Source: Escherichia coli
Lineage (GTDB): Bacteria > Pseudomonadota > Gammaproteobacteria > Enterobacterales > Enterobacteriaceae
DNA: 64,000 nt
Reading direction: 5' to 3' (one strand)
Assembly: GCF_030013595.1 (NCBI RefSeq)
Contig: NZ_CP122768.1
Position numbers: made by a program. Shown here in pieces: positions 18,001 to 21,000 of the stretch. Every line of letters begins with the position of its first letter. Within the stretch, counting starts at the first letter, position 1.

Positions 18001-21000
18001 TCTGAAGACCACCACTGGTGACAGTCGTTTTGTTGGCTGTTCCGCCATCCTGTACCCATTGCCCGCCGGTATTGGCCTCGTTATCCGGCCCATACTCCAG
18101 CCCGGTACTGATGGTCATTCCGTTGGTCGTACCGAAGACAATCTGGTTGTCATGATTTGCCAGTGTTCCGCCGTTCACGGTTTCTCCCGGGTGCACAACG
18201 ATGTCAGCAGCCAGCACCGGGAGTGACGTGACTGCGGCAAGAGACAGTGCAACCGCCACACCGCCACGTTTACCCCGTGCGCGGGCCAGTTCGGAGGCAA
18301 CCACGAAAGCGCCCGTAATGTGATTCCATACCAGCCTGTAGCAGGTATTCAGATGTCGTTTCATCAGCTTTTCCTTAGATTGAGGGTGAATAAAAAAGCC
18401 GGTACCCACAAACGTGGATACCGGCAGGTAAAGGGTTACAGTGCCGGAGGTCCGGCTGTGGGAGTTTCTGAATTGTGGTTCTGTTGTTCCCTGAATGTCT
18501 TTCTGTACGTATCTGTGCATGTTACTGACAAAGGTTATTATTAGCTTATCGATCGATATAAACGATCGATAAAATAGATATCGATCGTTTTATTCTATTA
18601 TTGAGCTATTGCACGGACAAGAGAGACAGTAACGAAAACAGTGCTTTTGTGAGCAGACTCAGAGTCAGGGAGGGCATCAGTCACGACAGGTTCAGAAGAA
18701 AATCCAGTTCCATACCGCACGGGCAACAGAGACCACCGTGTCACGAACAGCGCGCAGGGCCGTACGGACAACAGAGGCAACACAGACGCTCTCCGCTGTG
18801 TCAAATATCCGGTCCACCGCACCGGTAAACTGTTCACGGGCCTGAGAGCGGACAGATTCCGTGCGCAGCTCGTCCTGCAGTCGGGTCATCAGGGGACTGG
18901 CGGCATGGTCGGGAAGCGCTGTCATGAGCGCACTGACCAGCGTATCCAGTTCCCAGCCGGTGCGGGCCGATACGGCCACAACCGGATGTACGGGCCGGAA
19001 CAGACGGAATACCGCCTCCGTTTTTTCGCGAATATTCTGTGCCTGTGCAGGAGAAGGCTGAATACCGGCCATATCCCATTCATGGCAGGGCTCCGTTTTG
19101 TCGGCCTGCGTCACCACAAACAGTACCCGCTGATGTCCCCGGTGCAGGATGTGTCGCCAGAAATACTCATCCACAGACAGGGCACGGTCATCGGCTTTAA
19201 TCAGCCACAGTACCAGGTCAAGTTCAGGCAGAATGTCACGGTACAGGGCCTCATACTCTGCATCCCTGTCCCGGCTCTCGCCCACCCCGGGCAGGTCAGT
19301 GATAACCATGCTGTGACCGTGGCCACTCAGACGGAAGCGCCGTACTTCCCGGGTGCCGGCGTGAACATCACTGACCGGGGTGACCTCCCCCTGAAACAGT
19401 GCATTACAGAGTGAGGATTTACCGGCCCCGCTTTTACCCATAATGCCAATCACGGGTTCGTGACGGGTGAGTTTGCGCAGATGTTCCAGGATGTGACGGG
19501 AAAGCGAGTAAGGCAGGGAGGAGAGCGGTTTTTCAATTGCCTCAATGGCATCAGACGGATTCATACATGTATTCCCGGTGAAAAAAGACAAAACCCCGCG
19601 CACCGGAAAGGTGGCGGGGGATTCACGGAGATAATATCTGTCTGAAATTGTTTTTAATCGATGGGATTGTTGCGTATTAACATGAAGGAGATCAGGACTT
19701 ATCCGTTACTGGGTGATCTCCTTCCATGAAAATACGCCGTTATTGTTAAACAGCAGGCTGATTTCTCCGTAAAGGGGAAAATATTTATCGGCTGCATGAT
19801 TATCAGGTGTGTCTGTGTTTACTGCTGTGAGTATTTTTCAGTGTATTGTGGGGGAGATGTCAGTGGGAGATATTAAATTTACATTTATAATTATCTTACT
19901 TCTTCTGTGTGTTTTTTATAAGAGTGCACACGTAATGATATCTGTTGATACCATGTGGTTAAGTGTTTCCCTTCCTGGTCATGCGTAATGATTAAATGCT
20001 TTTGTGACACCATTCTTCCGGTCTGAATATTTATCCCGTTCTTTTTTATTTGTGCAGTGATACTGTCGGAAGAGAATTCAGTAATGTGAGGTGTCCTGGT
20101 CAGGATAATATCTGCTGAGATATTATTAGTTGAGTGTGTTTTTACTGAGCAAAAGCTGGCTTTTAATTCCTGTACTGAAACACTGTCGCTCGTCCGGGGT
20201 TAACTGAAACTGGATGATGATGTAAAATGAAGGCTGTTTTTGTGTTTGTCGAAGAAGTGTTATTTTAATCCATTCTCATCATTGGCTGGCGATTATACAG
20301 AAGTATTTGAAGAAAAAATGGTGCATTTTATCTGTGTCAGCAGGGAAGAAGTATTTTATTGATGTATCAGTATTAAATGGTTTTTGTTATTTATAAAAAT
20401 GTCATCCTGTCCATAGAATATTGTACTCAGCATTCAGTGCAGGAACTGTAGTCTTCTTTATTTTATTCTTCTTCAGGAGGGGGGATTCCTGAAGGCGTTA
20501 TTCCCGGTGTTCTGTTTATGATTCATCCCGGCAGGAAACCGGTATCTGCAATACCCGGGATGATGCTTTTTGTTCGTACGTGGTTGTGTAAAATTTGAAT
20601 AGTGGATGTGCTCTGAAGGGAAGGAGGGGACACACAGATTCATTTTGTCTTTCTTCAGCAGCAAAACACACTGTGGTTATTATTTAACCATTAAATCAAC
20701 AAAAATTTTTACCTCATATTGATTTGACTGCTATTTTTGCTATTAATAGCCAGAATTGCAGTGCTTTTATATCTGTGTGTAGTGAGGTTACTATGTCATT
20801 CGGTCAGCCTTGTGATGAGTTTCCCCTGAGTTCGCTGCCTCCACTCATTCGTGATGCCGTTATTGAAGCTCAGCAAATTACGCAGGCTCCCCTTGGGCTT
20901 GTGGCAGCGTCTGCCCTGGGCGCTGTTTCACTTGTCTGCCAGAATCTGATTGATGTCTGCAGACTGAATACACTGCGGGGGCCGGTCTCTCTTTTTTTCC

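Follow-up and report, generated by a model that had tools for sequence, protein, structure and literature searches.

A composite, probably regulatory, non-coding spacer between the yeeP-like GTPase and yfjI genes of a CP4-44-type island in Escherichia coli

The spacer, its borders and its distribution

The window analysed here is a stretch of 64,000 nucleotides (64 kb) from the Escherichia coli chromosome (contig NZ_CP122768.1, assembly GCF_030013595.1), and the element under study is the spacer at positions 19565-20792 (1228 bp) of this stretch. The spacer lies in a nearly intact CP4-44-type island adjoining cobU and is bordered on the left by a yeeP-like GTPase gene (minus strand) and on the right by a YfjI/DUF3987 gene (plus strand). 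It is probably a composite non-coding control region of the island, made of ordinary regulatory DNA: a putative promoter that would lead straight into a predicted, covarying terminator at the left end, a mobile repeat beside it, an AT-rich core and a putative operator at the right end. The two bordering genes are as follows.

18692-19564, minus strand: coding sequence of the yeeP-like GTPase, from the list of open reading frames (ORFs), with Pfam MMR_HSR1 and Dynamin_N matches; PGAP start ATG at 19564
20793-22277, plus strand: coding sequence of a YfjI family protein (DUF3987; PHROG 2373 'DNA helicase'), the right border of the spacer

In a 99.8% identical locus (L001) the yeeP-like gene is labelled 'GTPase family protein' by PGAP.

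The spacer has a GC content of 38.1%, whereas the window as a whole has 48.6% and the yeeP and flu genes beside it have 56-62%; only two of the 210 windows of equal size are as AT-rich. Its longest ORFs are of 63 and 59 amino acids (aa). Six spacer lineages were aligned (window type, EcN, GPEC856, CU37RT-2, CE2050 and 602354; 75-99% identity), and no ORF of at least 30 aa is intact in all of them; the AT-rich, ORF-free gap described in the first-pass annotation of this DNA is thus borne out. A 26-aa ORF at 20518-20598 was considered as a small gene and rejected: it is intact in four of the five other lineages, yet 8 of its 26 residues are replaced and it lacks a Shine-Dalgarno (SD) sequence. 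PGAP annotates nothing within the spacer in any listed genome, and Tandem Repeats Finder returned nothing from it. The covariance-model search for structured RNA, put forward in the first-pass annotation, gave no Rfam match in 19565-20792 at E <= 1; the sole match in the scanned interval (18300-21200) is IS102/IsrC, outside the spacer.

Matches to the spacer were found with megablast in 2,794 of 5,426 complete E. coli genomes, 1,857 of which carry at least 80% of it. A 976-bp core occurs in 1,906 genomes, solely as syntenic full-length copies and never beneath an annotated gene. The gene order is constant: GTPase (minus), spacer, YfjI (plus), a 190-200-aa protein (minus) and AlpA (minus). The spacer is therefore a fixed, syntenic and unannotated island segment, present in roughly one in three of the E. 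coli genomes sequenced. The core is absent from phages and has only four matches in the plasmid collection, to E. coli records of 1.0-4.9 Mb that we read as chromosomes or large assemblies.

Beyond this island subfamily the homology is confined to the two ends. Other GTPase-bearing islands (for example that of O157) share only the first 50-60 nt of the spacer, and a scan of genome contigs with YfjI returned only relatives of ~50% identity in an alpA-yfjI arrangement. The match with other GTPase loci stops at the -35 hexamer of the yeeP promoter (P1, below), and that with other YfjI loci stops just upstream of a GCTATT palindrome at the right end. Because homology ends at both of these backbone modules, the ~1-kb core is DNA specific to this island subfamily. 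As judged from these alignments, the spacer is a place where two conserved backbone modules appear to have been set back to back by rearrangement. A blastn search of the spacer against K-12 CP4-44, CP4-57 and CP4-6 found no homologue, so K-12 chromatin immunoprecipitation (ChIP) and transcription start site (TSS) data are not transferable to the core.

A putative promoter and a covarying leader hairpin at the left end

The left end of the spacer contains the following features, all of which face yeeP.

19657-19652, minus strand: putative -35 hexamer of P1, TTAAAA, followed by a 15-nt promoter spacer
19646-19631, minus strand: conserved motif TTCAGACAGATATTAT, part of P1
19636-19631, minus strand: putative -10 hexamer of P1, TATTAT, with an inferred TSS near 19624
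19619-19594, minus strand: leader hairpin CCCCGCCACC-UUUCC-GGUG(C)GCGGGG, -19.5 kcal/mol
19593-19580, minus strand: U-tract UUUUGUCUUUUUUC, directly 3' of the leader hairpin
19576-19572, minus strand: SD sequence GGGAA, read from the sequence, 7 nt before the yeeP ATG (19564)

P1 is a putative sigma-70 promoter for yeeP, placed by conservation and by homology with K-12. The motif TTCAGAYAGATATYAT, together with the -10 hexamer, is kept upstream of every GTPase homologue examined and is invariant or nearly so, although the GTPase proteins share just 49-60% identity. Leaders were aligned from the yeeP-type genes, the O157 gene, K-12 yfjP and ykfA, four IMG/VR loci and a Klebsiella island. Common to all of them is the order AAtnTTCAGAyAGATATyATc, TGAA, hairpin, U-run, SD, ATG (the K-12 paralogues have GAGGAG at the position of the yeeP SD), and in these promoters the sequence between -35 and -10 is better conserved than the -35 hexamer itself. 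In K-12, ykfA and yfjPQ have TTGAAA-15-TATCAT at RpoD-holoenzyme sites found in vitro by genomic SELEX (systematic evolution of ligands by exponential enrichment; Shimada et al. 2014, PMC3946193). A consensus promoter scan of the whole spacer gave no excess of sites (5, compared with 4.0 +/- 1.8 expected). The divergent promoters that the first-pass annotation had suggested for the spacer receive comparative support at both of its ends, the right-hand one being described below.

The conserved element between this putative promoter and the start codon, a terminator-like hairpin with a U-run, had been overlooked in the first-pass annotation. The stem has 10 pairs, nine of them G-C, and folds with z = -3.8 to -4.4; the U-tract reads UUUUGUCUUUUUU at 19593-19581. 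A U-rich tail follows the hairpin in all ten listed leader variants (nine and Klebsiella L158), most of which carry 7-8 U within 10 nt past the stem. The stems fall into at least five sequence classes, each with a U-run after it, and are unlike between families (CCCCGCCACC/GGTGCGCGGGG, CCCGCCUCC/GGAGCGCGGG, CCCGCAUCC/GGAUCGCGGG, ACCCUCGAAGCC/GGCUCGGGGGU, ACGGCAGAACC/GGUUCUGCCGU and ACGGCGAAUCC/GGAUUCGCCGU), every one of these stems being stable, GC-rich and provided with a U-rich tail. The structure is thus kept and the sequence changed in K-12 yfjP and ykfA, the IMG/VR loci and Klebsiella.

Covariation was measured in a covariance-model alignment of 12 leaders (A11). Both sides are changed in 9 of the 11 pairs, and the covariation score is 0.482, compared with 0.235 +/- 0.038 in shuffled alignments, none of 500 of which reaches it, and with 0.10-0.25 in slid controls. 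Among the compensatory changes are A-U to U-A in L082 and, in Klebsiella, CA/UG to AU/AU. Since the stem sequence varies between island families while the pairing is kept, the element is best described as a conserved promoter-proximal terminator, with termination itself predicted. K-12 CP4-57 holds a second, truncated leader (L011 23450-23550, plus strand; covariance-model score of 37.9 bits) with the motif, hairpin, U-run and SD, which ends in a 7-codon GTPase stub, MSNSEGW*, upstream of the ypjI pseudogene. From this truncated copy it can be seen that the leader and the 5' end of the GTPase gene move together. A putative promoter running into a covarying, terminator-like hairpin is, on this comparative evidence, a design common to the GTPase genes of CP4-type islands, including three sites in K-12. 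We came across no description of this design at CP4-type GTPase genes.

The geometry suggests how such a leader would work. P1, with its unusually conserved -35/-10 spacer, would fire into a 60-nt leader whose first element is the predicted intrinsic terminator, a GC hairpin followed by a U-run. The -10 hexamer lies ~12 nt upstream of the stem, so every yeeP transcript would traverse the terminator signal, which would make the leader an attenuator by construction; the hairpin begins ~5 nt past the expected start, so a terminated RNA would be ~40 nt long. Placed ~30 nt before the start codon, the signal would face both yeeP transcripts and those arising farther upstream in the spacer, and the GTPase and co-transcribed genes may in this way be kept low or under conditional control.

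Further copies of the promoter core occur within the spacer.

19631-19640, minus strand: first CAGATATYAT copy, that of P1; faces yeeP
19935-19944, minus strand: second promoter core, CAGATATCAT (P2); faces yeeP; the promoter scan gives TTAACC-16-TATCAT
20105-20114, minus strand: third promoter core, CAGATATTAT (P3); faces yeeP

These are the only three CAGATATYAT sequences in the window, each of them within the spacer and on its minus strand, where 0.23 are expected in 64 kb and none of 100 shuffles reaches three; TATCTG occurs six times on the plus strand, compared with 0.46 expected. The likeness among the copies is confined to the core. P2 is deleted in CU37RT2, and the CAGATA part of P3 is altered in CE2050 and 602354. 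The extra copies may be auxiliary promoters, whose transcripts would be stopped by the leader terminator, or regulator sites, or relics of duplication.

The combination of a conserved -35/-10 spacer and a terminator invites another explanation, namely that a dedicated processive antiterminator loads and acts at the left module, as lambda Q does at PR' and Pseudomonas AlpA at PalpB. The factor would bind the conserved -35/-10 spacer, and RNA polymerase would then read through the leader terminator and on into the long backbone operon. Pseudomonas aeruginosa AlpA and lambda Q are both published as using a binding element that lies between the -35 and -10 hexamers, closely followed by an intrinsic terminator (PMC7969949, PMC9371919); the left module, with its conserved promoter spacer and predicted terminator, resembles this, and the conservation of the promoter spacer beyond that of the -35 hexamer points the same way. 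We regard this analogy as unlikely to hold; no candidate factor was found. Neighbouring genes of the island are as follows.

15245-18520, minus strand: Ag43/flu, an island gene
18385-18588, minus strand: IS102/IsrC RNA (RF00124), full-length Rfam match of 253.5 bits, between yeeP and flu; the known IsrC locus upstream of Ag43
22602-23201, minus strand: 200-aa protein of no known family, following the YfjI gene
23291-23494, minus strand: AlpA, 68 aa, Xis/Vis/TorI-type, beyond the gene for the 200-aa protein
24253-24402, plus strand: Hha/YmoA-family protein (Pfam HHA, 74 bits)
25217-25786, plus strand: YagK/YfjJ protein, with a sub-threshold REP_ORF2-G2P match (25.3 bits; cut-off 27.8)

The AlpA of the island matches the 73-aa AlpA-family protein 8c3t and TorI, and is unrelated to its Pseudomonas namesake, which is an 8-helix Q-like protein (PMC9371919); a link between the two was dismissed as a coincidence of names, the protein types being different. 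The neighbouring 200-aa protein has no family match, and its AlphaFold model (predicted local distance difference test score, pLDDT, of 69.7) gives generic helical-bundle matches, none of them Q-like. YagK/YfjJ co-occurs with the leader in K-12 and L082 and was considered as a leader regulator; it was set aside as it looks Rep-like instead. An RfaH ops site is absent, and no clear -10-like pause element lies in the initially transcribed sequence. AlpA and the 200-aa protein, the gene for which invariably comes after alpA, were also seen to form a conserved pair across Enterobacterales, with BREX or Dnd cargo coming after the pair in Klebsiella and Yersinia (L158, L159, L160).

Extended to the whole island family, the same analogy would make the promoter-terminator-GTPase module an on/off switch for the CP4-type backbone operon, a form of Q-like antitermination in P4-related islands; we consider this improbable at present. 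The backbone operon comprises GTPase, DUF932, anti-restriction, RadC and CbtA/CbeA genes. On this improbable reading, a factor supplied by the island or by a helper would recognise the conserved -35/-10 spacer and render RNA polymerase resistant to the terminator. The extra CAGATATYAT copies could then serve as additional loading or decoy sites.

The mobile repeat, the core and the right end

Three further parts make up the remainder of the spacer; the repeat and the core are considered first.

19672-19737, unstranded: MITE-like (miniature inverted-repeat transposable element-like) palindromic repeat GCGTATTAACATGAAGGAGATC...GATCTCCTTCCATGAAAATACGC, 66 bp
19738-20718, unstranded: AT-rich, ORF-free core, specific to E. 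coli
20440-20575, plus strand: candidate secondary structure with block CCCGGCAGGAAACC...GGATGATGCTTTTTG (RNAalifold, 39 pairs, a few compensatory changes)

The inverted repeat noted at 19681..19728 in the first-pass annotation is present, with arms at 19684-19694 and 19714-19724 that pair at 11 of 11 positions. The complementarity extends outward to 19672-19737, a 66-bp element that lies 15 bp upstream of the yeeP -35 hexamer. The fold is very stable (-28 to -30 kcal/mol; z = -4.6 on the plus and -6.2 on the minus strand; none of 200 shuffles as stable), and a weak terminator-like site overlaps the edge of the hairpin; both observations would suit the view that the hairpin belongs to the small RNA (sRNA) suggested for this spacer in the first-pass annotation, or to a cis-acting structured RNA. 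The distribution of the element argues strongly otherwise. Copies of 58-66 bp with 76-84% identity, common ends GCGTATTA...AAAATACGC and sharp borders occur between unrelated flanks in at least six contexts, including an Ibr/PerC island and a site by a SPATE autotransporter gene near ompW; full-length copies also occur in plasmids, one beside an IS3 remnant and another on pVir68, where it lies downstream of cdtC, and a half copy (right arm only) lies downstream of another Ag43 gene. Altogether the repeat is found at 5,279 places in 2,720 genomes, compared with 2,356 places for the spacer core.

At the spacer itself, the CE2050 and 602354 lineages have a precise 73-bp gap at the position of the repeat, and where the repeat is present an ATTGTT duplication borders it. 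The L007 copy is bordered by CTTAA and other copies have no such duplication, so that the signs of target-site duplication are mixed; no parent insertion sequence (IS) with matching ends was identified. The EcN copy carries two uncompensated stem changes and is decaying. The repeat is thus an insertion polymorphism and not a conserved RNA: the hairpin is a small MITE-like mobile repeat that landed in the spacer. It has no U-tail past the stem and, as stated above, no Rfam match, and an RNA function for it is highly improbable.

A 33-nt match (91%, E = 3e-3) of the right arm of the repeat (L032 2501-2533), upstream of repA/tap in 774 IncFII plasmids, was judged to be a single chance-level match multiplied by replicon redundancy. 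EcN-type spacers (L002/L003) hold a second palindromic insert of 71 bp, with core TCGATCACGGTTTGGCCAAACCGTGATCGA, after the position matching 19983, as well as an additional 29-bp insert. The left part of the 71-bp insert recurs joined to a half copy of the repeat near an Ag43 gene (L009 2935-3065), and this points to a family of small repeats with a modular build.

The core evolves about neutrally. The identity of the spacer is 88% to the EcN type and 81% to the CE2050 type, compared with 86-91% and 84-87%, respectively, at four-fold sites of both flanking genes, and indels of 73, 71, 58, 29 and 7 bp are seen across lineages. In a sliding RNAalifold scan only the two ends, the repeat and the block at 20440-20575 stand out. 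For the last of these, pairing holds in 95.7% of the cells and 5 of 500 shuffles attain its covariation score, but the alignment comprises only three lineages and also served to derive the structure; folded singly, the sequences give z-scores of just -1.1 to -2.8. A plus-strand terminator at 20515-20575 was discarded, as EcN loses the stem and the U-run is paired in the consensus fold.

Two lineages show larger changes. Around the position matching ~20030, a (CCCTGCG)x5 run replaces part of the spacer in CE2050 (L004). In strain PM4 (L031 2722-3434), IS1 cuts the spacer past the equivalent of ~19965 and joins it to a dptF remnant, from which it follows that the core can be lost without loss of the GTPase-Ag43 part.

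It is possible, if doubtful, that the core is the unrecognisable, functionless remnant of a cargo gene and that only the two ends matter. Klebsiella and Yersinia islands hold a 304-337-aa gene of 33-38% GC in the slot just upstream of the GTPase leader, the core changes at least as fast as synonymous sites and indels in it are frequent, and the truncated core of PM4 is accompanied by no sign of island loss. Set against this, tblastn of the 304- and 337-aa slot proteins found nothing in the core, and tblastn of 2,593 ORF segments from related loci detected no protein remnants there. Bacterial genomes have a deletion bias, despite which a length of 1.19-1.34 kb has been held in six lineages, and the three same-strand promoter-core copies lie within the spacer. 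We favour the interpretation of the core as an AT-rich buffer between two promoters, which has acquired small palindromic mobile repeats and is probably coated by H-NS/Hha.

Silencing of AT-rich acquired DNA by xenogeneic silencers is well established. In the spacer, -10-like hexamers occur at 17.9 per kb, compared with a window mean of 6.9 (2.6-fold); seven of the 210 windows are as dense. The island carries a gene for an Hha-family protein. Binding and silencing of the spacer by H-NS are therefore plausible, given its AT content, its excess of -10-like hexamers and the Hha gene of the island.

The right end of the spacer carries two overlapping features.

20727-20762, unstranded: palindrome ACTGCTATTTTTGCTATTA/TAATAGCCAGAATTGCAGT, inverted repeat I2, with four GCTATT
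20719-20747, plus strand: putative yfjI promoter TTGATT-16-TATTAA, read from the sequence and missed by the consensus scan; overlaps the GCTATT element

The family consensus of the palindrome, CTGCTATTTCTGCTATTAATAGCGGAATAGCA, contains two direct and two inverted GCTATT, and the array lies 30-65 nt upstream of the yfjI start codon in the window. Nothing else in the spacer matches the distant YfjI loci (~50% protein identity; Citrobacter, Siccibacter, Erwinia and Enterobacter). Of 19 YfjI upstream regions, 18 contain an alignable copy of the element at 45-75 nt before the start, the K-12 alpA-yfjI gap among them, and the element is thus conserved upstream of yfjI across Enterobacterales. On these comparisons the four-GCTATT array is most likely a putative operator that would overlap the promoter of the helicase-like yfjI.

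An origin or iteron role for the element is a weaker alternative. The excised island would then replicate from the spacer or from its right end, with GCTATT iterons and an AT-rich unwinding element serving the helicase-like YfjI and Rep-like YagK/YfjJ proteins. The PHROG 2373 'DNA helicase' match of YfjI, the sub-threshold REP_ORF2-G2P match of YagK/YfjJ (given above) and the adjacency of the four GCTATT to AT-rich DNA are in keeping with an origin. Most YfjI loci, however, place the element in a short alpA-yfjI gap without a long AT-rich tract, as would be expected for an autoregulated operator; tandem iteron arrays are absent, DnaA boxes are at chance level and the GCTATT cluster is single, with no others in the spacer. 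An origin is accordingly very unlikely.

Several results weigh against a control region built in the way proposed here. At the left end, P1 has a poor -35 hexamer set at a 15-nt spacing; the terminator is not universal, as Yersinia ruckeri has a different hairpin in its leader, with no U-run after it; the stem of lineage 602354 is weakened (-10.6 kcal/mol); and entries for ykfA and yfjP are absent from two K-12 Term-seq supplements (PMC7815308, PMC12207403). The phased A/T tracts reported in the first-pass annotation did not hold up, as 37% of dinucleotide shuffles reach the AA/TT periodicity of the spacer at 10-11.5 bp and no 300-bp sub-window is significant. Nor is the H-NS high-affinity motif enriched (72 matches in the window, compared with 65 +/- 8 expected), the spacer having only two matches, each with two mismatches. 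With neither phasing nor motif enrichment, composition is what is left to suggest H-NS binding. The constant core length and the three same-strand promoter-core copies, finally, hint at some function beyond that of a neutral buffer.

Significance and comparison with known systems

As described, this is an ordinary finding: an AT-rich intergenic control region that holds a mobile repeat. The analysis maps a segment carried, without annotation, by roughly one third of the E. coli genomes sequenced and corrects a tempting reading of its hairpin as an sRNA. The component of note is the constitutive-looking promoter that would run straight into a covarying terminator, a testable regulatory design. 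The islands carry Ag43, toxin-antitoxin pairs and anti-restriction genes, and in relatives BREX/Dnd defence cargo, so silencing or switching of the backbone operon is of practical interest; the leader copies of K-12 ease experimental access to the question of how that operon is controlled.

The repeat resembles ERIC/IRU, REP/BIME and BoxC in form: all are short and non-coding, with imperfect terminal inverted repeats and a single hairpin, and are dispersed in intergenic DNA with presence/absence polymorphism at one locus. Unlike those elements, it has 1-6 copies per genome and no Rfam family, and only some half of the E. coli genomes have it, where it occurs in horizontally acquired DNA and plasmids.

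Likened by sequence alone, the spacer as a whole recalls island regions silenced by H-NS/Hha, which likewise have an AT content far above that of the host, dense -10-like hexamers and an Hha-family gene in the island; it differs from them in having neither A-tract phasing nor enrichment of the high-affinity motif. The right end resembles the operators of Xis/Vis/AlpA-type proteins and of autoregulated rep genes, where short direct and inverted hexamers, spaced about one helical turn apart, overlap the downstream promoter as they appear to do here. Xis/Vis/AlpA-type operators usually lie directly after alpA, whereas in this island family alpA is no longer adjacent.

The closest relatives of the left end are the constitutive promoters of K-12 ykfA and yfjPQ, which are homologous to P1 (TTGAAA-15-TATCAT there, TTAAAA-15-TATTAT here; PMC3946193) and have the same position relative to the GTPase start, with a hairpin and a U-run following in each. 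The accessible portion of that paper makes no mention of a hairpin downstream of the two promoters. The K-12 stem, ACGGCAGAACC/GGTTCTGCCGT, is wholly unlike the CCCCGCCACC/GGTGCGCGGGG found here, and K-12 has no homologue of the remaining spacer.

In architecture, the left end may be compared with lambda PR'/tR' and P. aeruginosa PalpB/tB. It differs from both in that no antiterminator, leader peptide, riboswitch aptamer or RNA-binding-protein site has been identified here. In common with both, and with termination predicted in the present case, it has a putative sigma-70-type promoter followed within a few tens of nucleotides by a GC hairpin and U-run, and a conserved sequence between the -35 and -10 hexamers.

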